From the NCBI GenBank assembly GCA_016209715.1, contig JACQVP010000014.1:1-58993 (forward strand): DNA of 58,993 nt, written 5' to 3'. The stretch comes from Candidatus Omnitrophota bacterium. GTDB lineage: Bacteria > Omnitrophota > Omnitrophia > Omnitrophales > Omnitrophaceae. Made by a program: the position numbers and the translations under genes. Each line of letters starts with the position of its first letter. Position 1 is the first letter of the stretch. Positions 9,303 to 33,069 of this stretch are shown one piece after another. The notes beneath the pieces are model-generated. The model was not told where the DNA came from, did no database searches, and saw only the letters and a program-made list of their open reading frames with translations.

Positions 9303-10506
9303 AAAACGGCTCCTCCACTTTCGTGCTCACGATCTTGCGGCCGTCCCGGTCGAAGCCGTTGATGGTGTCGTCGTAGAGCGCGAAGGGTTTCCCCTGGATT
9401 TCGGTCTCATAAATTTTCGGGCCGGGCTCGATCTGGTACCGGAAAATGATCTGATTCGTCTTCCGGAACATCTGCAGGACGGCCAGAAGCTCGCGATCGG
9501 GGTTCCGATAGGCCTCGATGGCATGGTCCACGCCGGGGCCGAACATTTGCTTCAGGAAGTCGCGGGAGACCCAGCGCGGCGGAATGTAATAGCCGTTGGG
9601 CTCGGTGCCGAACTGAGGATAGAGCGGCAGCGCGACCTTGGCCACTTTGACCAGATAATAAATGGGATTGTAACGGTCCTCGGCCCATTGCCCATCGGAA
9701 GCGATCTGGACCAGCCCCTGGAGCCGGATCTGTCCGATGCAGGCGGCCATGCAGCGCGTTTCCATGGGCCGGCCCTGGGTCTCCGGGTCCTTCCCTTCGA
9801 TCCGGGGATAACAGCCGATGCACTTTTCCGTCACCCGCGTGCTGGGCCGGTACATGGCTTTTTTATACGGGCAGGCCTCCACGCATTTGCGATAGCCGCG
9901 GCAGCGCGATTGGTCCACCAGCACGATGCCGTCTTCCGGCCGTTTGTAGATGGCGTTCCGCGGACAGGCAGCCAGGCAGGCCGGATAGGTGCAATGATTG
10001 CAAAGGCGAGCGAGATAAAAGAACCAGGTCTTGTGCTCCGGTAAACTCGTGCCGTCGTCGACGTAGGAGCCTTCTTTCCCCTTCGGGCCCACGGCCGTGT
10101 CTTCATAGATATTCGGAAACCGCCATTCTTCGTCCGTCGGGAGGTATCCCAAGACTCGCTGGGGCTCGGCGCCGGCCTTGGTTTTCGCCGCCTCGAAAAT
10201 CGTCTTCCCGTCGAAGACGTCCCCTTTCCATTTTTGGGCGCCGGGATTGGTTTCCTCGAGCAGTTTCAGGAGCTTGACGTCCCAGAACTGCGGATAACCG
10301 CCGTAGGGTTTCGTCTCCACATTGTTCCACCACATGTATTCCTGCCCCTTGGAGAACGTCCAGGTGGATTTGCAAGCCATGGTGCAAGTTTGACAGCCGA
10401 TGCACCGGTTCAGATTGAAGACAAAGGCGAATTGACGGTCGGGATGATGCTCCTCGTGGGGGTATTCCATCTTCCGGTTGATCTGCCAATTGAAGACCTG
10501 GCTCAT
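9268..10506 (-). CDS. Type II DMSO-reductase beta (NxrB/NarH-like) Fe-S subunit
   Basis: Four Cys groups: CIGCQTCTMAC, CNHCTYPACLAACP, CRGYRKCVEACP and CIGCYPR...CMAAC. The start is trimmed to the ATG at 10506 (MSQVFNWQINR), which overlaps the upstream stop. Confidence 0.9.
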   Translation of the reverse strand: MSQVFNWQINRKMEYPHEEHHPDRQFAFVFNLNRCIGCQTCTMACKSTWTFSKGQEYMWWNNVETKPYGGYPQFWDVKLLKLLEETNPGAQKWKGDVFDGKTIFEAAKTKAGAEPQRVLGYLPTDEEWRFPNIYEDTAVGPKGKEGSYVDDGTSLPEHKTWFFYLARLCNHCTYPACLAACPRNAIYKRPEDGIVLVDQSRCRGYRKCVEACPYKKAMYRPSTRVTEKCIGCYPRIEGKDPETQGRPMETRCMAACIGQIRLQGLVQIASDGQWAEDRYNPIYYLVKVAKVALPLYPQFGTEPNGYYIPPRWVSRDFLKQMFGPGVDHAIEAYRNPDRELLAVLQMFRKTNQIIFRYQIEPGPKIYETEIQGKPFALYDDTINGFDRDGRKIVSTKVEEPFYVRPDIHQNSI

Positions 10507-10772
10507 GACGCCCTTCTCCCCCGCCATTTGGCCCCGGCCTCTTCGATGACCGAGCGCACAAACGCGTCTCCTTTTTGCTTCCACACCCGGTACGGGCCGA
10601 CGTAAAGCGGGTTCCGGAACAGATTCAAAAGGGCGTCCTCCCCCCAGCCGTCACGCGCGAATTCCTCCGCGAAACAAAGCGCCATGTCGCGCACTTCCGC
10701 CTCCGACTGCGCAGGCAGTTCGATCCCCACCATTTCCATCGGGTCTTCCGGGTCCATTTCGTGTTTCGGCAT
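10503..10772 (-). CDS. Hypothetical 89-aa acidic protein between the alpha and beta genes
   Basis: ATG at 10772 preceded by AGGAGG. Its stop overlaps the beta start (ATGA). Sequence begins MPKHEMDPEDPMEMVGIELP...; no family recognised. Confidence 0.5.
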   Translation of the reverse strand: MPKHEMDPEDPMEMVGIELPAQSEAEVRDMALCFAEEFARDGWGEDALLNLFRNPLYVGPYRVWKQKGDAFVRSVIEEAGAKWRGRRAS

Positions 10773-10780
10773 GTTGCCTC

Positions 10781-13700
10781 CTACCCCTTGAAATAACCGC
10801 CGCTCAAATACTGTTTCATGACTTCGCTCTCGTTGGCGGGCGTGAATCCCGTAGTGGCCGGGGCCCACACGCCCTTGCCGTCCAGGCCGCCGTCCTCGGC
10901 CTTGGTCACGCGCACCAGAGTTTCCTTCGGCACGGTGTTGACCGCATGGTTGTCCGCCTCGCCGCCAAAGATGAAGGACATGAACACCTTGGCCTTGTGG
11001 AACAACGTGTCCGTCTGGTGCATCGGCATGTGCCAATTTCGCGTCACGCTTTGCTGGGAGCCGTACCGGAAATTGGCCTGATAGGCGCCGCCTTCCGACA
11101 ACGCGCGCTTGTCCGGCCGCGACTCGTGCGCCTTCACCGATTTTTCCGTGGCGATATAAGTTCCGTGTTTCATCATCACCACGTTATAAGGAAAGGCCGG
11201 GTTGAATTTGACGCGCAACATCAGGCGCGCGACTTTGTAAAATGGATCGTCGGGCCGGGCGCCGACATAGGGCCGGTCCGCCGGGTTGGCGTCCACGTAG
11301 ACGTAATCGCCGTCGTTGATGCCGAGCTCCTTGGCCGCCTGAGGGTTCATGTGCACCTGCTGTTCGCCGACTCCCGGGGTGCGCTTGTCCATGCGGTAAG
11401 GATCGCCGAAGTTGGAGTCCCAAATCTGGTGCCAGTCCACATTGCTCCAGAGCGAATGGACCCGGTGCCGGCTCTTCGGCGTGAGACAGTAGAAGCGAAA
11501 CCCTTTTTCCCACAGGAAATTCTGCGTCTGCTTCACCTCCGCCCAAGGCATCCGGATGTTGCGCACGGAGCGGTCGTCCCAATGTTCCGCCGCGGGCGCG
11601 ATGCCGTAATCATTGGGCCGGACGTAGGGATTGGAGCTCACGATGACGTTGGGCAGATACGGCGTGGCCTCGGGCCCTTCCCGGTGCACGATGAAATTCT
11701 CTCCGTATTCGATGGCCTCGGCCACGTCGGTGTAGGCGTGGAGACGCCCGGTGTCGGTGTGGAACGGCTCTCCCGCGTGCACCTGCTCCCAGAAGGGGAC
11801 GCGCGGATAGGTCCGGAAGAGCATCAGGGCCCCGCCCGGAGGACCGTATTTTCCGCTCATGATGTCCGGGAGCTTGTAGCCTGCGGTGGTGGTGGAGGTT
11901 TCCAGCAGGCGCTGGATATAGACCTCCCGGTTTCCCTCCAGCGCGAATTTCCAGTAATCGCGGAAGCGTGCGTCTCCGGTCAGTTCCCCGAGCTTTTCGG
12001 CGATCCCGGCCAGGATCATGATGTCGTCCCGGCTGTCGAACACCGGCGGGATCCCTCCCTTCCAAATCTGCAGAAAAGGATTGGAGCAGGAGGCGGTGAC
12101 CTCCAGCCCCTCGAATTCCAGCCAGCTGTTGGCGGGAAGCGCCAGGTCCGCGTATTCGATCGAGGCCGTCATCTGGATGTCGATGGAGACGATCATTTCC
12201 ACGTTGGGATTGACGTTCTTCAGCATCTCGTAGGCGTGCTTGGCGTTGTTCAGCAAGTTCACGTTGGTGAACATCATCACTTTGGTAGGGCTCGGCATGT
12301 GCGTGGCGCCGGTGAACACTTTGCGGCCGTCCTTCGGCGTGTCCACGATGAGCGGCCGGTCCCCGTGGTTCCAGTAGGCCGGCTCCTCGTCTTTGAAATA
12401 AACTTTGGCGTGCACGTCTTTGCCCGGCGCGGCCGGATCGAGGTTCGGATGGAACGGGTCTTCACCCACCCAGCCTTTGAACCCGTACCCGGTCCAGGGC
12501 GAACCCTGGAACAGGGCCGCTTTATAATTTCCGGCCCAGGTGTGGCAGCCCGAACCCGGCTTGCCGATGTTGCCCGTGAGCATGAGCGGCAGGTAGGCCG
12601 CGCGGTTCATTTCCGTGGCGTGGAAGTAATGATTGATCCCCTCGCCCTGGTGGATGGCCGCCGGCTTGATCGTCGCCAGGTCCTTGGCCAATTGCTCGAT
12701 CATCTCCCTCGGCGCCCGGGTCATTTCCACCACCGAGTCGAGGTCGTAATCCCGGAGATGGATCCGGTAAAGCGAGAAGAGGGTCATCACTTCGATTTCC
12801 CGCCCGTCCACAGTGCGGACTTTAAACGTCCCTTCCAGGGCCGGCCGGATATTTTTCCGGGCCAGCGCCGGACCGAGATCGTCGCGGGTGAGCGCGGCCG
12901 GCTGATTCCCGGCCTCGTCCCAGATCACGAAGTCGCCGATCTTGGCGTATTGTTCGTCCGTCAATCCCTGGTACTTGAAACTCGGCCCGTCTTTTTTGAG
13001 GCCCGGCCGGTAATCGGCGAAGATTTCGGCGGCGCGCAGGCGGCGCAGGTTGTCGGTCCTCACCAATAGGGGGAAATCCGTGAACTGGAGGACAAAATCT
13101 TTGTCGTACCAGCCGTTGTCCACCATGAGGCGCGTGATGCCCAGGAAGAGCGCCGTGTCCGAGGCGGGACGGATCGGGATCCAGTAATCCGACTTCGTCG
13201 CCGGGGGACTGTATTCGGGCGTGATGGTGACCAGTTTCGCCCCGCGCTCCATGCATTCGATGAACCAATGACTGTCCGTGAGCTTGTTCTCGACTAGGTT
13301 CTTCCCGTCCTGGATGATCAGCTTGCTCGACCGCAAGTCGTTGAAATCGCAATCCGAAGCCTGCAGGCCGTGGACCCAGGGATGCCCGGGGGCCTGGTCG
13401 CCGTGCCAGGTGTAGTTGGACCAAATCCTGCCGGCCTTGGCTTGATCGGGCCCGACGCCTCTCAAATGAGCGTCGAGAAGGGCCATGGTGTTCGACAACC
13501 GGTACATCCCGTATTTTCCGAAGACACCGAGCAGGCCCATCCCGCCGCGCATCTTGATCGTCCGGACCCCCGCGCCTTCCATCGGCGCGAGCATTTCTTC
13601 CGGATATCCCTCGGCCAGGAGTTTTTTCTTTCCTTCCTCTCCGCTGTACCGTTTGCCGACGGCCATCAGGCCTTTGGCGACGTAGCCCAGCGCCTGATCC

Positions 13701-19804: not shown

Positions 19805-20485
19805 TTAGGAGAGGAGGTCGCGGAGGCCTTTTTCGTCGAGAATGGCGATGGACTTGGGCAGGATATCGATCAGCTTCGCGCGCTTCAGCTGATAAAGGTA
19901 ACGGGCGACCGTCTCGCGCGAGGTGCCGATGCGCTGGGCGAGTTCTTCCCGCGTGAAATTGACGCTCAACACGTCTTTTACGTCTTTTTTCGAGCCGGGC
20001 GCGGCCTGAGCGGAACGCATGTCCAGCAGGAACTTGGCCAGCCGCTTTTTGACGTCCTTCAGCGAAACCTCCTCGATGAGAGAGGTGAAACAGCGGAGGC
20101 GGTCGGCGAACAGGCGATTGAGGGTGCGGGCGAGTTTATGGTTGTTTTGCACCATCCTCACATAATCGTCGCGGGACAAGAAAAGAACTTTGCAGTCGGT
20201 CATGGCTTCGGCCGAAGCGGAGCAAAACCAGGTAAAAGAACCCGGATTGCAGGCGCAGGTGTCTCCCGGGCCCAGCATCTCCAGGATCTGTTCGCGGCCG
20301 GAGGACGCCGTGCGGTAAAGCTTGACCCGTCCGGAGTGGACGAAGAACACCCTCTCGCACAAATTACCTTCATGAAAAAGCAGGTCGCCTTTGGCGAACG
20401 ACTTCTCGCGCATGACCTGCTTGATCGTGCCAACTTCGCTCTCCGACAGGCCTTGGAAGAACGGGATACCTTTGGGGATCTCCAT
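19805..20485 (-). CDS. Crp/Fnr-family transcription regulator with a CRP-like recognition helix
   Basis: cNMP-binding-like N-terminal half and a C-terminal HTH, ELAQRIGTSRETVARYL (RE-x3-R as in CRP RETVGR). No FNR-type N-terminal Cys cluster. Contains an internal CAC...C group (DTCACNPGSFTWFC). Confidence 0.85.
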   Translation of the reverse strand: MEIPKGIPFFQGLSESEVGTIKQVMREKSFAKGDLLFHEGNLCERVFFVHSGRVKLYRTASSGREQILEMLGPGDTCACNPGSFTWFCSASAEAMTDCKVLFLSRDDYVRMVQNNHKLARTLNRLFADRLRCFTSLIEEVSLKDVKKRLAKFLLDMRSAQAAPGSKKDVKDVLSVNFTREELAQRIGTSRETVARYLYQLKRAKLIDILPKSIAILDEKGLRDLLS

Positions 20486-20526: not shown

Positions 20527-21336
20527 TTAAGAATAAGCGTGGAGAGAAGCCAGCCAGAAATTGACGCCGAAATAGGTAAACATCACCAGAAAGAAACCGA
20601 AAAACGCGAGCACGGCAAAGCCCCGGCCGGATCCGTTTTCCATCGACCGCACATGATGAAGGGCCCCATACAAGGCCCAGGTGATGAAGGCCCAGGTTTC
20701 CTTGGGATCCCAGTTCCAATAGCGACCCCAGGAAGCGTTGGCCCAGACAGCGCCGGTGGAAATGCCCAGCGTCAAAAAAGCGAATCCGACCGCGATGAGC
20801 CTCGCCATCAGTCGGTCCAAATACTCCAGCCGGCCTTCGATCTCGCCGCGTTTTTCCGGCCGGGAGACAAATTTCCTCGCCGCGTCCAGGAATAAATAGA
20901 TGCCGGCCGTGCCGAATGCCACGGCAAAAGAGGCGTAGCCGAGGATGGCCGCCGTAACATGGAAGAGCAGCCAATTGCTTTTCAAGGCCGGCAGAAGGGG
21001 CTCAATATCGGATGACAAGAGCGAGCACAATCCGAGCAGGACGGCGGCCGTCAGACCGGCGAACCCCCCTACGGAAAGCGCCCGGAATTTCGGGAAGGTG
21101 GTCCAGTAAATGGCCATCATGAGAAAACCGAGCAAAATCAGGGTTTCGTAAGTATTGGACCATGGGAGATGGCCCGCCTGGACCCCGCGGATGGCGATCA
21201 CGGAGCCGTGAAAAGCAAGCAGCCCGAGACCCATCGAGATTGCGGACCAAAACCAAATCCTCCCTCCGGAAACGGCTGCGGAAAAGGATACCAGGGCAAA
21301 GAGAAGATAACATAACATCAAAATGCCGATGATCAT
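20527..21336 (-). CDS. ccsA: Cytochrome c biogenesis (System II) haem-handling protein
   Basis: WGRYWNWDPKETWAFITW tryptophan-rich haem motif and polytopic sequence. The start is trimmed to the ATG at 21336 (an ATGA overlap). Confidence 0.85.
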   Translation of the reverse strand: MIIGILMLCYLLFALVSFSAAVSGGRIWFWSAISMGLGLLAFHGSVIAIRGVQAGHLPWSNTYETLILLGFLMMAIYWTTFPKFRALSVGGFAGLTAAVLLGLCSLLSSDIEPLLPALKSNWLLFHVTAAILGYASFAVAFGTAGIYLFLDAARKFVSRPEKRGEIEGRLEYLDRLMARLIAVGFAFLTLGISTGAVWANASWGRYWNWDPKETWAFITWALYGALHHVRSMENGSGRGFAVLAFFGFFLVMFTYFGVNFWLASLHAYS

Positions 21337-22637
21337 CTCACACCGCCCCCCTTCACAACCGGTTCCAGTTCCCTCAGTATGATCCCGGCTTCGTATTTCA
21401 AGCCCGCGGGATCTTTGACGCAGGCGCCTGAACATTCATAGGAGCTCTCTTCCCCGCGCCGCTCGGGAACAAAAGAAATCCGTATGCCCCGCGGGATGAC
21501 AAAGGCACTCAGAAAGGCACCCAGGATCATGACCACAAAGCCCGCATAGGCAAGCGGCCAGCCCGGATCATAGCTCACTTTCATCCCGGAAGAGTAAATC
21601 TTCCGGATCCTCCCGATGGCAAAGGCCCATTCTGCGGGACCAGCGCCCTGATGCAAAAATAGATCGGAGAATACCCAAATCTGCTTCTCGGGGGTATCGG
21701 GCGAGGTGGAAGTATACAAAAACAAGGAGACCGCGGGATTGCGGAAATAGGGAGAACGGCTCGCCGCTTTTCCGCCTTGAACGATGACAAAATCCGGAAC
21801 GATCTCACCCGCCTCGACCGTGTAAGGCAGCCCCGCGAGTCCTGATTTTTTACCCGGCGCGAGGGTGATTTCACCGAAGGGTTTGCCGTTTTTATAGACC
21901 CGGAGAACTACCTCCCGGATCTTCACGCTGTAACGCATCTGAAAAACCCGCACTCCCCCTATCTGCAGGGGGCCGTTCACACTCAAGTCATGGTGCTCGA
22001 TCCGTCCCTTCCGGTCCTGAACCAGTAAACGGCTCACGTAAGACGCGACATTGCCCGTCGCGTCCAGCATCACGCTGAATTTCTCCAATTTGATTTTGGC
22101 ACCTCCCCGCGCAAGCAAGGTCGTGGCGCCTTCTTGCAATTCGATGTCCCGGACGTCCGCGAACGAATAAGTCAAAAGCCCCGCGAGAAGGGCAACCACC
22201 AGTCCAGCATGGACCAGGAAACTGCCCCAAATGCCGTCCAAATCCTTAACGCCGGTAAAAGAGAACCGCAATTTCTCCATTTTCGCGATCACGCGGTATC
22301 TCTTCGACCTCAGGACCGATGAAATCCGATCCTGATACTCCTGCAGATCTGAAAATGGGATCCTGGCGGGTCGGAAATCTTGAAGGCGCGTCTCCCGCCC
22401 CGCGGTGGTAATCTCATCCGCGGCCGCCATCCGGAACAAATCGATCCCCTTGCGGACTGTGTGCGACACCGCGAAGACTCCCAGGAGTCCCAAAAAAGCG
22501 ACAAACGGCTTCGCCGCAAACAGGGCACTGGGATTTTTCAAAAAAGGGAGGGTACTTTCAGGAATGGTGCCGAACGCGGCCGCGGCGCAGATCAAAACGA
22601 TCAAAACATTGACAAAGCGCAGAATAGAAGTAGTCAC
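21333..22637 (-). CDS. ccsB: Cytochrome c biogenesis protein ResB/CcsB
   Basis: N-terminal TM helices, a large soluble domain, a C-terminal TM and translational coupling to ccsA. GTG start. Confidence 0.7.
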   Translation of the reverse strand: MTTSILRFVNVLIVLICAAAAFGTIPESTLPFLKNPSALFAAKPFVAFLGLLGVFAVSHTVRKGIDLFRMAAADEITTAGRETRLQDFRPARIPFSDLQEYQDRISSVLRSKRYRVIAKMEKLRFSFTGVKDLDGIWGSFLVHAGLVVALLAGLLTYSFADVRDIELQEGATTLLARGGAKIKLEKFSVMLDATGNVASYVSRLLVQDRKGRIEHHDLSVNGPLQIGGVRVFQMRYSVKIREVVLRVYKNGKPFGEITLAPGKKSGLAGLPYTVEAGEIVPDFVIVQGGKAASRSPYFRNPAVSLFLYTSTSPDTPEKQIWVFSDLFLHQGAGPAEWAFAIGRIRKIYSSGMKVSYDPGWPLAYAGFVVMILGAFLSAFVIPRGIRISFVPERRGEESSYECSGACVKDPAGLKYEAGIILRELEPVVKGGGVR

Positions 22638-22666: not shown

Positions 22667-24817
22667 TTATTCAAACGCTTTCTTAAATCCGACGGTCACG
22701 CCCTGGCCAAAATACTCGTCGTTGTAACCGCTGAAACCTCGGCCGTCGTAGAATTTGAATATCTGGTAGCGGGCCTCGAAGGAGCAGGTCTTGCTGATAT
22801 CGTACTGGATCCCCGCGGTCACCTCATTCATGGTGTTCCGATTATCGCCGAGGGAATCCGTCAATTGATACCCCGTGGACAGCACGCTCTTCTTGGTCAG
22901 ACGATAATTCAGATTGGAAACCAGATAATATACGTCTCCGTTAAAATCGTAAGCGCCTGTGCCGCCCGACCAATTGCTCCTTCCGGTAGCGTCCGTCGGC
23001 GTATCCACGCGGTAATAATCGTACATTCCGGCGAAATACCCGAATAAATTCCGGATCACCGGTCCCGAGAAAGCCATCGAAAAGCGATCCCGGTCCAAAT
23101 TCTGCTGCTGATCTCCGACTTTGGGAAATTCAATATTGTCCATGATCCATTGGTATTTCAAGGTCGAGATCCACGCCGCCGGCAGTTTCACGTCTAAGTT
23201 CGCAGTGATTTCCTGCACCATCCGCTCCTGATCGCCCAGATAACCGGGATAATATCGAGGCAACGTGTCCGACCGGGTGTTGTACTGACGCTCTCTCTGC
23301 TGCCATTTGTACTGCAGATTCGCCTTCATCCTCGAATTCAACCTCTGGGCTATCTTCACTTTCGGCACGTAGTCCAGATAAGTGACATTGGTTTCATAAC
23401 TCAGTTCGGGCGCTCCGGATCCCCAACCCGCATCCGTGAAGATTTCATGATTGCGCGCGTCAAATGTTTCTTTCCAATTCAAACGCCGCTGCTCGAGATC
23501 AATGCCCGCGTAAGCGGTAGTCCCTTGACGCCGGTACGTGACCGACAACGCTTCCCCAAACCAGCCTTCGCTCAAATTGGTATCGGAGGACCGGAGGTTA
23601 TTGATCCCGCCCGCGATCAACGTGCCATGATTGTCCGTCACGGCATGCTCGCCGCGAAATCCGAACCGCATATCGAGACCCTTCCGCCGCAGAAAATCCA
23701 GCATGGCGCTTCCCGCGCTCACGGTATTGCTGACCCTCCAGTTGTCGACATCCGGGCTCCAATAAATATTGGGATTGGCCAGATTCGGCCGGACCTCGCT
23801 GCGGACACTGTCATTCCGGAGAAAATTGAAGAAATAGCCCCCGTGCACGTAAACATCGTCGGACCAGAAGCTGTCGTACTTCGTTTGGAGTTTGATATCG
23901 TGAAATTGGTAGCGGTCGATATAGTCGCGCTTCTGAGCAAGGACTCCATTCGTGTATCTCGTCGAATCGGTAAACTGGCCGTCTTGATAGGCTTCATATG
24001 AAATCAGCGGCTCAATATTGTGTTTCTCGGCAACCTTCATCGGAAGACTGAGAGTGAATTTGTTGCTCACTCCATCCACCTGCCGTCTCATTGAAATAGA
24101 GCGCAGAGACGGCAATCCCGTGCGCGTGGCCACGTCCCCCTTGAGCAGGGTCTCCCTGCCTTCGCGAGTCCATAAGCCGTATTTAAAAATCAGTTTTGAT
24201 GTTTCCGATACCGGATACCCCAATTCCACATCGACATTTCCGCGGTCCGTATAAAGATCCTCGTCCGTCCAATCTCCGAACTCATCTGGCAGACGATACT
24301 GAGATGGATCCCACGGCTTGTCTTCCGTGCCATTCCAATATTTTCTAAACCGCTTCCATCTTGCATCCAGATAATAACCGCCCTCTTTTGAAACGCGCAT
24401 GTCAGCCAAATAGCTGTAATTGACGAGGGCCTTCCCCTTGAACTCCGTGGTGATGTCGCCGGAAGCATCCTTAAAATACAAGCCCCTTACCCCGCCCGTC
24501 GTCTGGTCATCCGTATACCAGTCTTCCCGAAACCGGCCTCTATCGCCTTTCACGTAGTAATGAGTGATCGAAGGTGCGACCACAAAAAGATCCGGGCTCG
24601 CCCCCGGAAAATCACCGAAGTATTTCTCCTTTAGATTCTGTGTCGCCTGCGCGGAACTCGGAGCAGCATTTTGCGCAGAAGGCTGCGGCTGGCTTTCTGT
24701 TATTTCTTTGGTCTCGGAAATCGCAATCTCGTCGGCATTAGCATTCAAGGAGGCGAAACACAAAATCCCGACCGTCAGGAGAACCGCCCCAAAGCCACCG
24801 CGGAGATGGATTCTCAT
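22667..24817 (-). CDS. Outer-membrane beta-barrel protein (MtrB/PioB-like porin of a porin-cytochrome pair)
   Basis: Signal peptide ending SLNANA-DE and 716 aa with alternating aromatic/polar strands (YxY, FxF) throughout. The start overlaps the stop of the cytochrome gene (ATGA). Confidence 0.65.
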   Translation of the reverse strand: MRIHLRGGFGAVLLTVGILCFASLNANADEIAISETKEITESQPQPSAQNAAPSSAQATQNLKEKYFGDFPGASPDLFVVAPSITHYYVKGDRGRFREDWYTDDQTTGGVRGLYFKDASGDITTEFKGKALVNYSYLADMRVSKEGGYYLDARWKRFRKYWNGTEDKPWDPSQYRLPDEFGDWTDEDLYTDRGNVDVELGYPVSETSKLIFKYGLWTREGRETLLKGDVATRTGLPSLRSISMRRQVDGVSNKFTLSLPMKVAEKHNIEPLISYEAYQDGQFTDSTRYTNGVLAQKRDYIDRYQFHDIKLQTKYDSFWSDDVYVHGGYFFNFLRNDSVRSEVRPNLANPNIYWSPDVDNWRVSNTVSAGSAMLDFLRRKGLDMRFGFRGEHAVTDNHGTLIAGGINNLRSSDTNLSEGWFGEALSVTYRRQGTTAYAGIDLEQRRLNWKETFDARNHEIFTDAGWGSGAPELSYETNVTYLDYVPKVKIAQRLNSRMKANLQYKWQQRERQYNTRSDTLPRYYPGYLGDQERMVQEITANLDVKLPAAWISTLKYQWIMDNIEFPKVGDQQQNLDRDRFSMAFSGPVIRNLFGYFAGMYDYYRVDTPTDATGRSNWSGGTGAYDFNGDVYYLVSNLNYRLTKKSVLSTGYQLTDSLGDNRNTMNEVTAGIQYDISKTCSFEARYQIFKFYDGRGFSGYNDEYFGQGVTVGFKKAFE

Positions 24818-25590
24818 CGGTTGAATGTCCTCCAGGTATTGGATCCATGCGGTGAACGGTGATGATCCACGCAGTTTTCACCGGGGCCAATGAAGTAATT
24901 TCCGCCGCCCGCGCCGTGCGGCACGCCGCCGATATTACCAGCCTGATTATTGGTATTGGGCTCCCAGTGGCATCGCAGACAGAGCGCATTGTCGTCCGCG
25001 ACGAGCAATTTTGCATAAACGCCGCCGTGGGGTTCATGGCAAACCTGACAGCCGTCCCGCATCGCGTCGTGCTCGAAGACAAACGGCCCTTTGTATTCCT
25101 TATGGCATTTAAAGCATTTTTCGCTGGATCGTTCCAAATCGGTGACGGAATGTGATGCCCGGTCGGCGTTATGCATGCCATGGCAGTCCATGCACGCCAT
25201 TTGCCCTTCCGTCACGGGATGATGAAATTGAAGTTGAAACTGAGCCTTTTTGTCCAGATGGCAGGCGAAACAACGCTCCGTATCATAGCGTATGATCTTT
25301 GTTTTATCTCCGCTGCCGTCCACATGCAGACTTCCGGGACCGTGGCAGGATTCACAGGCCTCCCCGGTGATTTTCTCTCCCTCTTCTAAACTAGTCCCGA
25401 AATGGGATTCCAAGCGGTGCCGCTTCACGACGTCCTCATGGCAAGCGGCGCAGGTTTCCATTCCGACGTATTCGGCCCCCGGTATCGTATGCTGCTCAAG
25501 AGCATTGCGGATTTCTTCATAGTCCCGGCAGGAGGAAATATAAAATGCTGTGAGTGCAAAAATTGGGAGCAACAGGTAACGAAGTTTCAT
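24814..25590 (-). CDS. Heptahaem c-type cytochrome lipoprotein
   Basis: Lipobox FYISSC. Seven CXXCH motifs (CAACH, CESCH, CFACH, CMDCH, CFKCH, CQVCH, CLRCH) with paired CXXCH-x-PH spacing, plus a terminal CVDHH. Confidence 0.85.
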   Translation of the reverse strand: MKLRYLLLPIFALTAFYISSCRDYEEIRNALEQHTIPGAEYVGMETCAACHEDVVKRHRLESHFGTSLEEGEKITGEACESCHGPGSLHVDGSGDKTKIIRYDTERCFACHLDKKAQFQLQFHHPVTEGQMACMDCHGMHNADRASHSVTDLERSSEKCFKCHKEYKGPFVFEHDAMRDGCQVCHEPHGGVYAKLLVADDNALCLRCHWEPNTNNQAGNIGGVPHGAGGGNYFIGPGENCVDHHRSPHGSNTWRTFNR

Positions 25591-25605
25591 AATCGCATTT
25601 TAATA

Positions 25606-25621
25606 GGCCAGAATCGTGCCA
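25606..25621 (-). promoter_or_regulatory. Sigma54 (-24/-12) promoter TGGCACGATTCTGGCC
   Basis: The minus strand reads GTTGGCACGATTCTGGCCTA. TGGCACG is perfect, the GG-N10-GC spacing is correct, and it lies about 15-30 nt upstream of the cytochrome ATG in the 48-nt gap after the NtrC-type regulator gene. Confidence 0.6.
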
Positions 25622-25638
25622 ACTTCATGAAGGGGAAA

Positions 25639-27096
25639 TTACTGTTCAGAGTTCTGAGATTGGGTGTTTTGGCTCAAGTCGGCTGGATCTTCCGTGTCAT
25701 TCAACCCATATTTTCCCATTTTATACCGCAAAGCGTCCCGGCCAATGCCCAGCATGCGTGCGGCCTTGGACTGATTCCCCGATGCCGCTTCCAGCGTCTG
25801 GATCACAAGCTGTTTTTCGATTTCATCCAGCGGAACGGACAAGAGACAGGTGGGCAATTTATTGGAGGGCTTGCCGGAAGACGGCGCGCTTCCTTCCGAC
25901 TTGTAATCCTTCAGCACACAGCCGCAATCGATCTCCGCCGGAAGATGATGGGTCCGGATGAGGGTTTCTTCATTCAGGATCATCGCCCTTTCGATGATGT
26001 TTTTGAGCTCCCTCACGTTCCCGGGCCATTTATAATTCAGGAGCATTTCCAGCGCGTCCGGCGCGATGCCGGAAATCGATTTTTTGAATTCCCGGTTGAA
26101 GTGGGCAAGGAAATAGCCCGCTAATGCCGGGATGTCCTCTTTCCGCTCACGCAGCGGATGAAGATAAATAGGCACGACGTTCAGCCGATAGTAAAGGTCT
26201 TCCCGAAAGCGCCCCTCCCGGACTTCCACCTTCACGTCTTTGTTCGTCGCCGCGAGGATCCTCACGTCGGCCTCAAGTTCCTTGACCCCGCCGATCTTGC
26301 GGAATTTTTTCTGATCGATGAGATGGAGAAGTTTTGCCTGGAGCTCCTTCGGCATATCGCCGATCTCGTCCAGGAAAAGGGTTCCTCCCTGCGCTTCTTC
26401 AACCAGCCCTTTTTTAGACTGACGCGCGTCCGTGAAAGCGCCCTTTTCATACCCAAACAATTCGCTCTCGAGAAGGGTCGCCGGAAGCGCGGCGCAATTC
26501 ACGGCGATGAAGGGACGCGCCGCCCGGCGGCCCCCATAATGGATCACACGGGCGAGCAGGTCCTTGCCCGTGCCGCTGGCGCCCTCGAGAAGCACGGTGG
26601 ACGCCTCCGAAAGACATATCTGCCTCACCAAATCGAGCACCCGTTTCATGAAAACACTTTCGGCTACGATATTGGACCAATCATATTTTCCACGTTCGAT
26701 GGACTCCCACTCATGGATCTTTTTCCGCAATTTCCTTCTCTCAATCGCTTTTTCGATATTGAGCTTGAGTTCGTCAAATTGAAACGGCTTGTGCAGATAA
26801 GTGAACGCCCCTGCCTGCATGCATTCGACCGCGCTCCGGATGTCATCATTCGCGGTGATGACCAGGACGGAGACCAAAGGATCCCGCTTCATCATTTCCA
26901 TCAGAACATCCTTCCCGTTTCCGTCCGGGAGGCGCAAGTCCAGGATGACCACGTCGACCACGTCCTCTTCAAAGAGCCGCAATCCCGCGCCGGCCTTCGT
27001 GGCCGTAGCGACTTCATACCCTTCGCGCGTCAAATCTTTTTCCAACGACCAGCAAATCAATTTTTCATCATCCACGATCAATATTTTGGCCTTCAT
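25639..27096 (-). CDS. Sigma54-dependent response regulator (REC + AAA+ + Fis-type HTH)
   Basis: ILIVDDE...DLRLPDG receiver, GASGTGKD Walker A, GAFTDA sigma54-contact loop and a C-terminal QSKAARMLGIGRDALRYKM HTH. Confidence 0.9.
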   Translation of the reverse strand: MKAKILIVDDEKLICWSLEKDLTREGYEVATATKAGAGLRLFEEDVVDVVILDLRLPDGNGKDVLMEMMKRDPLVSVLVITANDDIRSAVECMQAGAFTYLHKPFQFDELKLNIEKAIERRKLRKKIHEWESIERGKYDWSNIVAESVFMKRVLDLVRQICLSEASTVLLEGASGTGKDLLARVIHYGGRRAARPFIAVNCAALPATLLESELFGYEKGAFTDARQSKKGLVEEAQGGTLFLDEIGDMPKELQAKLLHLIDQKKFRKIGGVKELEADVRILAATNKDVKVEVREGRFREDLYYRLNVVPIYLHPLRERKEDIPALAGYFLAHFNREFKKSISGIAPDALEMLLNYKWPGNVRELKNIIERAMILNEETLIRTHHLPAEIDCGCVLKDYKSEGSAPSSGKPSNKLPTCLLSVPLDEIEKQLVIQTLEAASGNQSKAARMLGIGRDALRYKMGKYGLNDTEDPADLSQNTQSQNSEQ

Positions 27097-28634
27097 CCCA
27101 TCCTCCCCGCCTCCACAGAGGCCTCGTCCACCGCAGACTCCGCCGCGGCCGGCAAAATGATGCTTAAAATCGTTCCCTTCCCGGGAAGGCTTCGTGCCCG
27201 GATCGAGCCGTGGTGGGCCTCGATGATCCCCTTGGAAACCGACAGCCCCAATCCTGTTCCGTCCGCGCGCGTAGTGAAAAAAGGTTCAAAGATGGAGGCC
27301 AAGACGTCTGCGTCCATTCCCAAGCCGGTGTCCTCCACTTCGGTGAGAACTCCGTCCGGGACGGGCTCGATGCGAACGCTCAAAACGCCGCCTTCCGGCA
27401 TGGCGTTTGCGGAATTTAAGAACAAGTTCAGAAAGACCTGCTCCAACTGCCCTTCGTCCCCGCACACGGCCAATCCCGGGGATTTCGCCGTCACCTGAAA
27501 GCGGATGTTCCGCGACCTGAGAAAATGCTCCGCCAAATGAAATGCCTGCTGGACCGGGTCGGCGAGCGGGCACCGATCAAAAGAGGGCGGCTTTTGCCGC
27601 GCGTACCTCAAAAGATTATGAAGGGTCTTTTCGATGCGCCCAACCTGCATGATGAGCTCCGTAAAAATTTCGGGGTCCTGCCCGGGCTGAAGCTCGCTCT
27701 TGAGCGCATGGAGCGTCGAACTCATCGCGGCCAGCGGATTTTTAATTTCATGCGAAATATTGGAAATGAATTGCCCGAGAGAAGCCAGACGGTTTGAATG
27801 TGCAAGTTCGCGGCGGTGCTGTTCGGCAATTTTCTGCTGGGCCCGGCGAAAGCCGCGGATCATGGCGTTGAAGCTTTCTGAAAGGCGTTTCAAATCCGCA
27901 TCGCCCCGGATAGAAATCTTGGCATCGAGTTGCCCGCGCTGCGCTTTCTCCATCTCCGATATCAGCTGCCGAATGGGTTTGCGCACAATGGTCCGGACGA
28001 CCCACCGGATGAGGACCGCACTCAGCAGGATGATGCCGCCCGCGGCGATAATCATGAAGAGCCGGTTTTCGGCGAAGCGTTTGAAGATCGGCGCCAGGGA
28101 GACGTGAAGCTCGATCCCTCCCAACGCGGCCCCGGGGACAACGTCATGGCAGCGCATGCAGGCGGCCCGGCTGTGCACGGGATGCACGATCCGGAGGGTC
28201 CCCTTCGCACCCTTCTCCTGGAAGTGGATCACGCCTTGGTCGCGCGTAAAACGGTCCGCATCGGTCGTCGTCAAATCGACTGCCTGGTCGATTTTACGAG
28301 GGACCGTTGAAAAACGAATAATCCCTTTCGCATTGAAGATGTTGATCTCCGCGAGACCCAGACGATCTTTTTCGCTCCCGATCACCTGCTGCAATTGTGC
28401 CGGGTCGAACGTTTCGTTCATCATGGTCTCGATCAGCTTTCCCTTAAGGTACTGCGCCTGGTAGAGGGACGTCGTCACCAGCGTTTCGGCGATCCGCTTG
28501 GAAGCCCCTTTCATCAAAGCGAAGGCGCCGATCCCCACGATGAGACACACCACGGCGCCGACGGTCAGGACGAGTTTCACGGTCAGGGATTGAAACAGGA
28601 TCCTTTCCAAAAAGCCGGCCCTCCTAGTTCCCAT
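27093..28634 (-). CDS. Sensor histidine kinase with a periplasmic CXXCH (haem c) domain, HAMP, HisKA and HATPase
   Basis: Two TMs flank an approximately 150-aa loop containing CMRCH. H-box NISHEIKNPL; N/G boxes LNSANAM and DTGLGM...GTGLGLS. Confidence 0.85.
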   Translation of the reverse strand: MGTRRAGFLERILFQSLTVKLVLTVGAVVCLIVGIGAFALMKGASKRIAETLVTTSLYQAQYLKGKLIETMMNETFDPAQLQQVIGSEKDRLGLAEINIFNAKGIIRFSTVPRKIDQAVDLTTTDADRFTRDQGVIHFQEKGAKGTLRIVHPVHSRAACMRCHDVVPGAALGGIELHVSLAPIFKRFAENRLFMIIAAGGIILLSAVLIRWVVRTIVRKPIRQLISEMEKAQRGQLDAKISIRGDADLKRLSESFNAMIRGFRRAQQKIAEQHRRELAHSNRLASLGQFISNISHEIKNPLAAMSSTLHALKSELQPGQDPEIFTELIMQVGRIEKTLHNLLRYARQKPPSFDRCPLADPVQQAFHLAEHFLRSRNIRFQVTAKSPGLAVCGDEGQLEQVFLNLFLNSANAMPEGGVLSVRIEPVPDGVLTEVEDTGLGMDADVLASIFEPFFTTRADGTGLGLSVSKGIIEAHHGSIRARSLPGKGTILSIILPAAAESAVDEASVEAGRMG

Positions 28635-30531
28635 TTTCGCCGTGCCCTTCCGGGGACTTTCCCGTGAACATGCTCCAATTCATGGGGTAATTTTCGGGGT
28701 CGAACATCGCAAAATAAAAATGCCAGATCACGATGGCCAGCGTCGCCAGCACGGCTTCGTAAAAATGGACGATGGTCGCGACGTCGAGCGCCCATTTGGG
28801 GAAATACCGCATCGCGAAATTCTCATAGACCAGCATCAGCCCGGTGACGGCCATGACCACGGAGCCCCAGACCAGCGCCCAGTATTCGAGCTTTTCCACG
28901 TAGTTGTATCGCGCCAAGACGGGTTTCTCCGGCGTCAGGCCGAGATTGTGCTTCTGCATGCGCCAGAAATCGGAGAAATCCTTCGCCGCGGGGAGCAGCG
29001 CCCGGAACTGGCCGCGCCCGCGTTTGGTGAAAGCGAGGTAGCCCAGGTGGAAGGCGCCCACGGCCATGAACAACTTGGCCGCCAGGCGGTGCACGATCCC
29101 GCGCCAATCGGCCTGCGTCCCGAAGAAGGTGAAAGGCGCGGCCCACCAGGCGTCCGGATATTTGAGGGCGAAACCGGAATAGGCGAGCAGGATGAAAGAA
29201 ACGGCCAGGAGCAGGTGCTGGATCCGCTCGCTCAGCGTGAACCGGGTGTGCCGCCCTTTTTGCTTGGCCCGGGCGTAATGCTCGCGGAGTTTGCGCGCGA
29301 AATCAAGGGCGTTGTGCACGATCATCCCCCCGATCACCAGCAGAATGAGCCAGACATAAAAGACCCCCACGAAGTAGACCACCTGATCGCGGAGACTGGA
29401 AGGCGCGATGTGGATCGAGCCCTTGGCCAATTGATCGCTCACGTTCGGGTGGCAGCGCCCGCAGGTTTGGGGAAGGTTTTTCTTGTTGACCGAAGAGGCC
29501 GGGTCGCTCGAAGGCAGGATGTCGTGGGCGCCGTGACAGCTGGCGCAATTCGCCACCGTGGTGCGCCCGAACTTGCTCGCCAGCCCGTGATAACTTTCCA
29601 GATAAGTTTTCACCCGGTCGGCGGGCAGGCGGTATTTGGTGACGACCTTCTCGGCGGCATGGCAGTGGCCGCAGGTCTTTTCGGACACCGCGGTGGTGTA
29701 GACCGTCGAGGCCGGGTCTTTGTGCGAAAGGATGTTGTGCTCGCCGTGGCAATCGGTGCAGACGGGCACTTCCATCTTGCCCGCCAGGGCGGCGCGGCCG
29801 TGGATGCTCCGCTCGTAAGTCCGCAGCACGTTCTCGTGGCACTTGCCGCAGGTGCCGGGCACGTGCTTTTTGAAAATTTTCGATTCGGGATTGGTCGGCG
29901 CGTGCAGGTCGTGCGAACCGTGGCAATCGTTGCAGACGGCCGCGGAAAGGTTCTTCTTCTCCAAGAGCGCCTTGCCGTGCACCGTGTCGGCGTACGAATG
30001 AAGGGGTTGTTTCTCCAGCAGGGAATACCTCGCCATCATCTTCTCGTTCTCGTGGCAGACGGCGCAGGTCTGCGGGATGTTCAACCGGTGGATCGGGGAA
30101 AGGGGATCCCGCGCGCTGCGAATGGTGTGTGTGTCGCCGTGGCAATTGAGACAGCTCGCCGCGGGGACCCCGCTCTTGAGCGCCTTGCCGTGGTCGGAGG
30201 CGCCGTAAATCTCGGCCTCGACGCGGTGGCAGACCGCGCAATCGACCTGTTTCAGGCTTTCCGGGTGGGGCAATTCTTTGATGTCGCTGTGGCAGGAAGT
30301 GCACAAATTGCTCCCGTGCGCGGTGGTCTCGAAATCCTCGAGCTTGAACGTGTCGTGGCAGGCGAGGCAGTCTTCGTTGGCGATGGTTTCAGCCGCTGCC
30401 GGCTCGTCCAGCGGCGCGGGGGCAGGTTCCTCGGCGCAAGCCAGCGCCGCCCAGAGGCAGATCGCGAGCGCGATCAGGATCAGGACGAGATCCAGCTTTA
30501 CGCGATTTCCCCCGAATGGCAATCGAAACAA
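28624..30531 (-). CDS. CbcL-like fusion: periplasmic 11-haem cytochrome c plus a 5-TM b-type cytochrome (FdnI/HydC-like) domain
   Basis: Signal peptide, 11 CXXCH motifs, then His-bearing TM helices (IQHLLLAVSF, IVHRLAAKLF, VATIVHFYEAV). TTG start at 30531 or 30522. Confidence 0.8.
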   Translation of the reverse strand: MFRLPFGGNRVKLDLVLILIALAICLWAALACAEEPAPAPLDEPAAAETIANEDCLACHDTFKLEDFETTAHGSNLCTSCHSDIKELPHPESLKQVDCAVCHRVEAEIYGASDHGKALKSGVPAASCLNCHGDTHTIRSARDPLSPIHRLNIPQTCAVCHENEKMMARYSLLEKQPLHSYADTVHGKALLEKKNLSAAVCNDCHGSHDLHAPTNPESKIFKKHVPGTCGKCHENVLRTYERSIHGRAALAGKMEVPVCTDCHGEHNILSHKDPASTVYTTAVSEKTCGHCHAAEKVVTKYRLPADRVKTYLESYHGLASKFGRTTVANCASCHGAHDILPSSDPASSVNKKNLPQTCGRCHPNVSDQLAKGSIHIAPSSLRDQVVYFVGVFYVWLILLVIGGMIVHNALDFARKLREHYARAKQKGRHTRFTLSERIQHLLLAVSFILLAYSGFALKYPDAWWAAPFTFFGTQADWRGIVHRLAAKLFMAVGAFHLGYLAFTKRGRGQFRALLPAAKDFSDFWRMQKHNLGLTPEKPVLARYNYVEKLEYWALVWGSVVMAVTGLMLVYENFAMRYFPKWALDVATIVHFYEAVLATLAIVIWHFYFAMFDPENYPMNWSMFTGKSPEGHGENGN

Positions 30532-32009
30532 TTCATCTCCTTCCAGGCTTCGCCCACGTCTTCATCGGGATGCTTGAACTCGAGCCCACCCGTGTTGCTT
30601 TCGATCGCCCCCGGCTTTCCCTGCTCCATGATGATGTGGCAGGAGTTGCAATCGTTGGTGAGGATCTCGCCTCCCGCGGTTTTATGTTTGTTGTCGTGGC
30701 ACCGGAAACATCCCGGCGCGTCTTTGTGCCCGATGTTCTCCGGATAGGCCTTCCAGGAAACCTTCATCTCGGGGAAAAAGTTGCTTTTGTAAATCTTGAC
30801 CACGGTGTTAACGCTCCTGGCTAAACTGTCCTTTTTCTCCTTCAGCACCGCGGGGTACTCCGATTCATAAAAGGCCTTCAACGATTCCCGGATCCCGGCC
30901 GCGGCTTCCTTCTCGCTGGCGTATTCGCCGACCAGGGCCTTCACCGCCTCCCGCTTTATATAAGGAAGCTCGCGGTCAATCTCCCCCACCGAAAGGGCTT
31001 CGTTGACCGCGTCCACCGGCGTCCGGAAATTGTGGCTGGGCCGGTTGTGGCAGTCCATGCAATCCATGCGCCGTATCTCGCCCGGGGGCGGCGAAGCCGC
31101 GGAAAACCCCGATTCTTCGTCCACGTAGACACGCTCCTTCCCTTCCGGGTCGATGATTTTGACCCAGGGGATCACGTGGCGCTCTTCGTCGGTGGCGATG
31201 TAATAAACTTTATTTTTGATGTTCATGTGCCAATGGATGCCCTCTTTTTTGCCGAACTTGCGGGTCCCCCCGCCCACGAACAGGAGCATCCGCGTGCGCC
31301 ATTCAGTGTTGGCCTCATCGGGCAGGAAATACTGCTTGTCCTGTTCCACGGCGCCGAAAAACTGCTGCGGCCAATGGCACCGCTCGCAAGTCTCCTGTGC
31401 CGGACGCAGGTGTTTGATGGGCGTTTCAATAGGCTTGGAATATTTTTTCATGACCACCGAATACACCTGGTAGGCCCCTGAAAATTTGGAGCGGACATAC
31501 CACGCCGCGCCCGGCCCGATGTGACATTCCACGCATTTGACCCGCGCGTGCGGCGAATTGTGATAGGCGGTAAATTCCGGCTTCATCACCTCGTGGCAAA
31601 CGCGGCCGCAGAACGTTTGCGACTCCGTGAATTCGTAAGAACGAAACAGGCCAAACACGGTGAAAAGCCCGAACAGGGTGGTCACCCCGATCGTGGTGAA
31701 GGCCCATTTTTGATGGGTCGGATTGTTGAAGTCGATCGCGGGAAAGCGCCGGACGGTGCCGTGTTTGAGCCGCGCGGCCCGCTCCCGAAGGGCCCCCACG
31801 GGGATCAGGATCAAACTCAAGGTCAAGAAGGCCGGCGCCAGAAAATAAGTGATAATCCCGATGTAAGGATTGATCTCCTTCGACCAGATGTCCAGGAAGG
31901 ACAGGAACAGGATCACCGTGAAGAAGATGACGGACAGTATCCCCCCGATGACGCTGATCCAATTCTGGAAATAGGAGTCCTTTTTATTCGGGTTATTCGG
32001 GTCCATCAT
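30498..32009 (-). CDS. ImcH-like inner-membrane multihaem cytochrome (NapC/NirT-related)
   Basis: Three N-terminal TM helices; CGRVCH (CX3CH) plus six CXXCH motifs (CVECH, CERCH, CMDCH, CFRCH, CNSCH, CFDCH). ATG at 32009 behind AGAGGGA; the track start at 32012 is a TTG. Confidence 0.7.
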   Translation of the reverse strand: MMDPNNPNKKDSYFQNWISVIGGILSVIFFTVILFLSFLDIWSKEINPYIGIITYFLAPAFLTLSLILIPVGALRERAARLKHGTVRRFPAIDFNNPTHQKWAFTTIGVTTLFGLFTVFGLFRSYEFTESQTFCGRVCHEVMKPEFTAYHNSPHARVKCVECHIGPGAAWYVRSKFSGAYQVYSVVMKKYSKPIETPIKHLRPAQETCERCHWPQQFFGAVEQDKQYFLPDEANTEWRTRMLLFVGGGTRKFGKKEGIHWHMNIKNKVYYIATDEERHVIPWVKIIDPEGKERVYVDEESGFSAASPPPGEIRRMDCMDCHNRPSHNFRTPVDAVNEALSVGEIDRELPYIKREAVKALVGEYASEKEAAAGIRESLKAFYESEYPAVLKEKKDSLARSVNTVVKIYKSNFFPEMKVSWKAYPENIGHKDAPGCFRCHDNKHKTAGGEILTNDCNSCHIIMEQGKPGAIESNTGGLEFKHPDEDVGEAWKEMNCFDCHSGEIA

Positions 32010-32031
32010 CAAAGTCCCTCTTAGCTGTGCA

Positions 32032-32156: not shown

Positions 32157-32687
32157 TTATTTATTTGGAACCGGGTGCTTAATCTTCTCCCACCGTTCCG
32201 CAAAATTGAACGGCCTGAAATTCGGGTTTTCTTCGTTATGGCATTTCACGCAAGTCGCTTCGGTGGGAATCTCCATTCCCGCCTTCATCGCCGCGTCCCG
32301 ATTTTCCATAATGCTCTTCTTGGCATAGTCTTTCCCCGCACCGTGGCAAGACTCGCAGGAAACGCCTTCCTCGACCGGCACTTTTTGTGTAACTTTTTGC
32401 TCTGTAAGACCATACGCTGTCGCATGGCATTTCAAGCATTTGCCGCTCGTCGTGGGATCTTCAATTCCCAGCTTGGCTGCGGTTTCCTTGGCAGCCGGTG
32501 TCGTAAGTGTTTGGTAGGCTTTGGAATGTGCGGATTCCTGCCAAATCCTCAGCTGTTCGCCCTGTTCCGGTTTCTTGTGGCACATTGAACACATCTTCAC
32601 CCCTGTGTATTCATGAGCGGCCAGTGCCGCGTCCAAGGGGGCCAGCAGATTCACTGCCAAAAACATCATGATCCATTTCTTCATCAC
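32157..32687 (-). CDS. Periplasmic tetrahaem c-type cytochrome
   Basis: Signal peptide ending LDAALA-AH and four CXXCH motifs (CSMCH, CLKCH, CESCH, CVKCH). The track start is a GTG at 32687; the first ATG is at 32684. Confidence 0.85.
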   Translation of the reverse strand: MMKKWIMMFLAVNLLAPLDAALAAHEYTGVKMCSMCHKKPEQGEQLRIWQESAHSKAYQTLTTPAAKETAAKLGIEDPTTSGKCLKCHATAYGLTEQKVTQKVPVEEGVSCESCHGAGKDYAKKSIMENRDAAMKAGMEIPTEATCVKCHNEENPNFRPFNFAERWEKIKHPVPNK

Positions 32688-33069
32688 CCATCACCCCTTT
32701 CCTCTGGCATCTTAAATTTCTACTAATACAATCTTGATGCCAAGATCAAACCGTTATTACGAATTATTGCTCTCTCCTAAGTCATATTTCAGAAATGAGT
32801 TATACTATCGGCCCGCGCCGGCAGATTTGACCCCGCCAGCGCCTTGCGTCATTTCACTCAATGGCCTTTAAAGGGCTGCGTCAGAATCCCTAAGGATCGT
32901 TATTGTTTCTGTAATAATGGCTAATTTTGCTGCTTTCTGATTAATCTTAAAGGCAACTGGCTCGACAGGAATCATGATGCGATCTCTGTGCGGAGTTGGG
33001 TCTTCCGATCTTTGACCGCGCTGATGTCAAAAATTTCAAAACATCTCTTCCGTTGCGGATTTTTCTGAA

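Follow-up and report, generated by a model that had tools for sequence, protein, structure and literature searches.

The window analysed here is a stretch of 58,993 nt (contig JACQVP010000014.1) from a MAG of the phylum Omnitrophota (1.37 Mb, 115 contigs, 69% complete). The locus has its closest named relative in Candidatus Omnitrophus fodinae SCGC AAA011-A17. The genes around the element described below all lie on the minus strand. The relevant features are:

19805..20485, minus strand: Crp/Fnr-family regulator (cNMP_binding and HTH_Crp_2 domains), 41 nt after ccsA
20527..21336, minus strand: CcsA (PF01578, E = 9.5e-47)
21333..22637, minus strand: ResB/CcsB, System II cytochrome c maturation (PF05140, E = 4.7e-30)
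22667..24817, minus strand: porin-like outer-membrane protein, 716 aa, with a signal peptide
24814..25590, minus strand: multihaem lipoprotein cytochrome, 258 aa, with seven CXXCH motifs and the lipobox ISSC, related to MtrA/DmsE
25593..25596, minus strand: predicted transcription start, from promoter geometry
25610-25607, minus strand: −12 box TGGC, from the sequence read
25621-25616, minus strand: −24 box TGGCAC, from the sequence read
25606..25621, minus strand: probable σ54 promoter core TGGCACGATTCTGGCC, −26 to −11, from the motif read, the PSSM score and conservation at eight loci
25639..27096, minus strand: response-regulator bacterial enhancer-binding protein (bEBP), 485 aa (Response_reg; Sigma54_activat, PF00158, E = 4e-66; Fis-type HTH_8)
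27093..28634, minus strand: histidine kinase (HAMP, HisKA, HATPase)
28624..30531, minus strand: multihaem and cytochrome b protein, upstream of the kinase
30498..32012, minus strand: NapC/NirT-like membrane cytochrome
32727..32742, minus strand: second σ54-like site TGGCATCAAGATTGTA, 11.7 bits, 39 nt before a tetrahaem cytochrome gene (32157..32687)

The lipoprotein cytochrome scores 148 bits against the DmsE-family model, below the 192-bit cut-off, and the 716-residue porin-like protein has no match in Pfam or NCBIfam. For ccsA the longest ORF extends to 21435, and the ATG at 21336 is the probable start, as judged from the translation. The putative unit is compact: ATGA overlaps link the cytochrome gene to the porin-like gene (24814-24817) and resB to ccsA (21333-21336), and a 29-nt gap precedes resB. 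Genes that overlap or nearly abut in this way support the preliminary description, in which the promoter drives the cytochrome, porin and ccs genes. The Crp/Fnr gene is possibly the last gene of the unit, and no convincing terminator was found before it. Upstream, the kinase gene overlaps the start of the regulator gene by 4 nt, and the kinase has a CMRCH motif in its periplasmic loop. For the haem-sensing role that the preliminary description gives to the kinase, this motif is the only feature seen.

The C-terminus of the window cytochrome (24814-24870) reads NCVDHH, with His replacing the second Cys where a paralogue on contig C68 has a CX4CH haem site. The window cytochrome probably carries either seven haems or eight, the last of them attached by only one thioether.

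Positions 25606..25621 read GGCCAGAATCGTGCCA on the plus strand and TGGCACGATTCTGGCC (TGGCACG-ATTC-TGGC) on the minus strand (25621..25606). The minus strand has GG at 25620/25619 and GC at 25608/25607, the exact GG-N10-GC spacing. The site falls within the 48-nt gap 25591..25638, with the regulator stop codon on one side and the cytochrome ATG (25590) on the other, and its 16-mer ends 15 nt from the ATG (13 bp if counted from the 18-mer). The earlier claim of a GG-N10-GC motif in this gap is thus upheld by the sequence, the motif being that of the minus strand. The −24 half matches TGGCACG perfectly; the −12 half, TGGCC, departs from the consensus at −14 (G) and at −11 (C). Neither a σ70-like promoter nor a terminator was found in the 48-nt gap, and no Rfam family or stable RNA fold was detected in or around it (fold z = +0.44). 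Without a terminator between the regulator and cytochrome genes, the promoter would be internal to a possible read-through unit.

We scored the site on a PSSM built from 29 intergenic ChIP-supported Salmonella σ54 sites (Table 3 of PMC3844500), which themselves range from 15.3 to 22.3 bits. Matrix scoring, proposed in the preliminary description as a check, gave a divided answer. On the Salmonella-derived matrix the match is weak: it scores 10.6 bits, less than any training site. In its context it is significant: when the 100 nt preceding the gene were shuffled, p was 0.003 for a site at least as good at any position and 3e-4 for one at the observed distance from the ATG. The main defect is the G at −14, where T occurs in 29/29 sites of the Salmonella set, followed by the C at −11. 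Across the MAG, 53 sites score at least 10.6 bits (12 intergenic, 41 inside ORFs). Counted against the consensus, the site matches 10 of 12 positions; 55 sites of the 1.37-Mb MAG reach this count, and 8 of the 55 lie outside long ORFs. Six of the seven orthologous sites described below score 13.0-17.9 bits on the same matrix and the seventh (G015) scores 11.8, so the present site is the weakest of the eight orthologous promoters. The score by itself is marginal and cannot carry the claim of a promoter.

The search for cytochrome homologues took in 96 genomes at the level of the order and 400 at that of the phylum. The lipoprotein-type orthologue occurs at eight loci in seven genomes from five families (the present MAG, G000, included), with protein identities of 43-80%. 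A TGGCAY-N5-NKGN element is found at all eight of these loci, ending 13-15 nt before the ATG, and the DNA flanking the element cannot be aligned among them. The elements and their distances to the start codon are:

G000: TGGCACGATTCTGGCC, 15 nt to the ATG
G001: TGGCACGCCAAATGCA, 13 nt to the ATG
G015: TGGCATGCAACTTGAG, 15 nt to the first in-frame ATG
G014: TGGCATAGTTAATGCA, 13 nt to the ATG
G014, second copy: TGGCATATGTCTTGTA, 14 nt to the ATG
G057: TGGCATGATAATTGAT, 14 nt to the ATG
G058: TGGCACTAATATTGAA, 14 nt to the ATG
G024: TGGCATAAAATTTGAG, 14 nt to the ATG

Shuffled locus by locus, the sequences gave p = 1-5e-4 for a site at the conserved position that scores 10.6 bits or more. An orthologue of the bEBP gene lies directly upstream of the promoter at 7/8 loci. 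In G014 a gap of 633 nt contains the element, and the cytochrome, barrel and ResB genes come after it; because this gap has no operon upstream of it, the element there must be the promoter. The element was also sought at 28 loci of more distant cytochrome homologues outside the order and occurs in none of them, which confines the architecture to the order. With the score marginal, conservation of both motif and position is what, at the level of sequence, decides for a genuine promoter. The central proposal of the preliminary description, a σ54 promoter directly downstream of an NtrC-type regulator, is backed by this eight-locus conservation and by the adjacency of the bEBP gene at seven of the eight.

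The −12 region varies among these loci. We counted σ54-type patterns in five relatives (G014, G015, G024, G057 and G058), with reversed patterns as the control. TGGCAY-N5-TTGAW occurred at 69 sites (reversed control, 14), TGGCAY-N5-TTGCW at 23 (control, 13) and TGGCAY-N5-TTG[GT]W at 63 (control, 42). When 91 TTGA and TTGC sites were viewed in context, 16 TTGA and 7 TTGC sites proved to be intergenic with a correctly placed downstream gene. TTGA sites precede dnaK (in four genomes), a pilin gene and an Hsp20 gene, each with an AAAGGAG-type Shine-Dalgarno sequence. Non-C bases at −12 are thus normal in this Omnitrophota order, and the commonness of TTGA in the lineage explains its presence in four of the orthologous cytochrome promoters. 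Variation of the lineage at −12 does not account for the G at −14 in the present site. In the GC-rich MAG itself the reversed-pattern control was uninformative, with ACGGT twice as common as TGGCA.

The preliminary description had also named the presence of rpoN in the genome as a point to confirm, with its absence as a refutation, and here the MAG did not provide the gene: rpoN was not found in the 69%-complete assembly with PF04552, PF04963 or TIGR02395, or by tblastn using RpoN of two relatives. Nor was it found in the two other genomes of the family (G001 and G002; 64% and 83% complete). Among high-quality genomes of the order, 17/17 encode it, as do all the other carriers of the orthologous site (5/5). 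Taking the stated completeness values of the three family genomes (69, 64 and 83%) as independent, the joint chance of missing rpoN in all of them would be ~0.02. Each of the three encodes four to six strong intact bEBPs, and the MAG keeps five with intact loops. Synteny gave a mixed picture. A gene 74% identical to a neighbour of rpoN in G008 lies at the very end of the 3.6-kb MAG contig C21, a position compatible with the loss of rpoN to an assembly gap. In G011 and G015 another gene is convergent with rpoN; its match on MAG contig C55 (46-48%) has no rpoN beside it. From the 69% completeness, the presence of rpoN in relatives, the intact bEBPs and the series of pilR-like gene, promoter and pilin gene listed below, we judge that the missing rpoN is probably an assembly or binning gap, though three of three family genomes are without it.

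Other σ54-type sites of the MAG occupy sensible places and are followed by ordinary leaders and Shine-Dalgarno sequences:

C106:6288 (region C106:6180-9316), minus strand: TGGCATTGATTTTGTT, in the order pilR-like bEBP gene, site, type IV pilin gene
C111:7887-7902, minus strand: TGGCATTGCATTTGCA, 34 nt upstream of a small P-II-like gene (MKKIECMVHPAHLDRFE...); at 14.5 bits it scores highest among the intergenic sites of the MAG
C68:12147 (module 8760-12162), minus strand: TGGCATTCAACTTGCT, before a small Cys-rich gene and then a paralogous cytochrome-barrel pair
contig C68: TGGCATCCTTTTGGCT, before a stand-alone receiver gene

The C106 pilin is 88% identical to the G015 pilin at its N-terminus, and the C106 site has T at −12. 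Within the window, the tetrahaem cytochrome gene downstream of the site at 32727..32742 is preceded by a strong GAGGAAAGGGG Shine-Dalgarno sequence; sites comparable to this one occur in only 2/13 orthologous loci (G057, TGGCACTATAATTGAA; G058, TGGCATTATTTATGAA).

The paralogous module on C68 encodes a 115-aa Cys-rich protein, a cytochrome 48% identical to that of the window (its CX4CH site is CFSAGCH) and a 691-aa barrel, and it lies directly downstream of NrfH/NrfA-like genes.

The regulator gene next to the promoter encodes an NtrC-type protein with the σ54-contact loop GAFTDA, as first described; its translation and its Pfam domains both agree. The GAFTDA loop is kept in all bEBP orthologues examined (L014, L015, L019, L020, L022, L043 and L044); the remaining four bEBPs encoded by the MAG carry GAFTGA or GSFTGA instead. 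GAFTDA is a documented functional loop variant, found in DVU2106 of Desulfovibrio vulgaris (PMC4641369). The clade of GAFTDA bEBPs may have adapted together with the variable −12 region of the promoters it targets, and the adjacent response-regulator bEBP is the probable cognate activator.

A search for the enhancer of this activator covered inverted repeats (25560-26100), shared dyads and shared 9-mers with one mismatch, in the window and in the relatives, and returned none. The interval 25640-25900, singled out in the preliminary description, held no conserved inverted repeat, and neither did the relatives; the sole candidate there is a weak palindrome at 25875-25898. Recurrent upstream words reflect only coding conservation of the regulator HTH (ALRYK). 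The gap between the regulator and cytochrome genes is 48 nt here versus 110-200 nt in the relatives, and any enhancer here would have to sit inside the regulator gene, as the preliminary description supposed.

In G015 (locus L015) the gap between the two genes contains a perfect 12-nt inverted repeat, TATAGTACCGCA-N21-TGCGGTACTATA, ~45-90 nt upstream of the promoter. None of the other loci has a counterpart; in G015 the repeat might serve as an enhancer or as a terminator.

Promoter geometry predicts transcription to start at 25593-25596, which coincides with the earlier expectation of 25594-25596 as one prediction with another. With C25607 as the −12 base, +1 would be 25595 and the ATG would begin at +6; over the eight loci the ATG falls at +4 to +6. 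An A at −3 from the start codon (25593 here) is invariant (AYY-ATG, 8/8 loci), as is the ATG itself (8/8). Two roles are conceivable for this A: as the first transcribed base, lying 12-14 nt past the −12 base, or as a purine at −3 of the Kozak-like type. A Shine-Dalgarno sequence (GGAG, GAGG or AGGA) is absent between the −12 box and the ATG at all eight loci. Since the ATG follows the 16-mer by only 15 nt, the predicted leader is 3-5 nt long with no Shine-Dalgarno sequence, and translation would be of the leaderless type or otherwise Shine-Dalgarno-independent. All other σ54-linked genes seen in these genomes have leaders of 20-60 nt and a strong Shine-Dalgarno sequence. A crude estimate of Shine-Dalgarno usage (36% vs 23% in the control) is too noisy to gauge how far the organism depends on it.

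The predicted transcript resembles leaderless mRNAs, of which 171 are described in Sinorhizobium meliloti (PMC3616915), in its ATG start at 8/8 loci, in having no Shine-Dalgarno sequence and in a predicted 5' end 3-5 nt from the AUG. It differs in the 3-5 nucleotides predicted ahead of the AUG, whose A is the first base of a truly leaderless mRNA. We found no description of a σ54-dependent leaderless transcript in the literature searched. A fuller proposal, which we put forward tentatively and consider rather doubtful as a whole, is that the mRNA begins 5'-AYY-AUG and is activator-dependent and essentially leaderless, that the short leader acts as a translational insulator, and that these features go together with a lineage-wide shift of the −12 GC to GA or GT and with the clade-specific GAFTDA loop. 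On this proposal the cytochrome gene, having no Shine-Dalgarno sequence, would yield little protein from RNA that reads through from the regulator operon, and the σ54-initiated RNA alone would be productive.

The closest known systems are those of Geobacter sulfurreducens, in which enhancer-binding protein genes lie directly upstream of target promoters at pilR-pilA, dcuB and fdnG (Leang et al. 2009, PMC2725144). The present locus shares with them a response-regulator bEBP gene immediately upstream of, and co-oriented with, a −24/−12 promoter that drives the next gene. The pilR-like gene, promoter and pilin gene on C106 have the layout of the Geobacter PilR/σ54/pilA system, and a link between RpoN and cytochromes of extracellular electron transfer is a further common feature (PMC2725144). 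The Geobacter consensus TTGGCACGGTTTTTGCT has the canonical GC and is followed by ordinary leaders. Here, in contrast, the −12 box is TGGC (TTGA, ATGC or TTGT in relatives), the leader is predicted at 3-5 nt and the search for an enhancer site gave none.

The site is also like enterobacterial σ54 promoters (Samuels et al. 2013, PMC3844500; consensus of Barrios et al. 1999) in its TGGCACG −24 box and GG-N10-GC spacing, and its first 11 nt are identical to those of the Salmonella hydN site TGGCACGATTCGTGTATA. Non-GC −12 boxes are found in Salmonella as well, TTGA in STM0649.S and TTGT in pspA and pspG (PMC3844500). The differences are the G at −14, where Salmonella has T in 29/29 sites, and the distance from promoter to ORF, which is 27-154 bp in Salmonella (PMC3844500) and 13 bp here from the 18-mer. 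As the predicted leader is shorter than any of the Salmonella distances, either the translation mechanism or the transcription start would be unusual.

The downstream genes recall MtrAB/Pcc-type clusters (Shi et al. 2014, PMC4245776) in the succession of a periplasm-facing multihaem cytochrome of the MtrA/DmsE kind and a large porin-like protein. They depart from these clusters in having seven haem motifs rather than ten, in scores below the family cut-offs and in a barrel that matches no family model. The porin-cytochrome clusters of Shewanella and Geobacter are described as being under CRP or TetR-type control, and we found no description in the literature of a dedicated bEBP for them.

We conclude, with a probability of roughly 0.8, that the element is a genuine σ54 (RpoN) −24/−12 promoter for the cytochrome-porin-ccsBA operon. 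RNA polymerase containing σ54 would bind TGGCAC (−24) and TGGC (−12) and stay as a closed complex. The kinase with the CMRCH motif would phosphorylate the adjacent response-regulator bEBP (GAFTDA), which would then remodel the closed complex at 25621..25606, with transcription starting at about 25593-25596. The resulting transcript would cover the heptahaem lipoprotein cytochrome, the porin-like barrel, ccsB/resB, ccsA and possibly the Crp/Fnr gene. Inside a longer imcH-cbcL-kinase-regulator transcript, if there is one, the promoter would provide an internal boost that depends on the signal.

Holoenzyme with σ54 characteristically forms stable closed complexes, and the site might instead serve mainly as a roadblock or insulator, at which such a complex, parked 15 nt ahead of the ATG, would stop read-through from the regulator operon, with the cytochrome made from another start. 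Non-promoter σ54 sites have been discussed (PMC3844500), the gap holds no terminator, and a leader this short sits uneasily with translation, all of which would suit such a role. We nevertheless consider it improbable. Downstream of the site there is neither an alternative promoter nor a Shine-Dalgarno sequence, in G014 nothing lies upstream that would need blocking, and an activator gene adjacent at 7/8 loci is the hallmark of a productive bEBP-dependent promoter. The G014 locus bears equally on the possibility that the GG-N10-GC match arose by chance and that the cytochrome operon is co-transcribed with the kinase and regulator genes from a promoter upstream of imcH, as no upstream operon exists there to supply read-through. 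The marginal PSSM score, the 53 equal or better sites of the MAG with 41 inside ORFs, the gap free of terminators and the failure to find rpoN in the MAG can all be cited for chance. They are opposed by an element that keeps its distance to the ATG at 8/8 loci despite flanks that cannot be aligned and proteins that are 43-80% identical, and we regard a chance match as very improbable.

Least probable of all, in our estimate, is that the element is an operator for another DNA-binding protein, such as the regulator itself or the Crp/Fnr protein, or a signal acting at the RNA level in a read-through mRNA. A Crp/Fnr gene does end the unit, and the TTGA(T) of several orthologous sites resembles an FNR half-site. 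The element is, however, asymmetric, with no second half-site; its invariant part, TGGCAY, is the σ54 −24 box; and the TGGCAY-N5-TTGA form also precedes pilin, dnaK and hsp20 genes in the relatives. Against an RNA signal stand the lack of an Rfam match and of a stable fold.

Read as a σ54 promoter beside its activator, the element is of an ordinary kind, found here in an unstudied phylum. The eight cytochrome promoters, together with those of the pilin and dnaK genes, form a clean set for comparison and indicate that σ54 recognition in this lineage tolerates or prefers a non-C base at −12, and with such tolerance standard PWM scans will under-call promoters of this type there. The 3-5 nt leader, if real, would be an unusual coupling of an enhancer-dependent promoter to leaderless-type translation. 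For a phylum without a cultured member, the locus offers a concrete proposal for the regulatory wiring of extracellular-electron-transfer genes, in which a putatively c-haem-bearing kinase would act through a bEBP and a σ54 promoter on an MtrAB-like conduit and on the genes for its own haem attachment.
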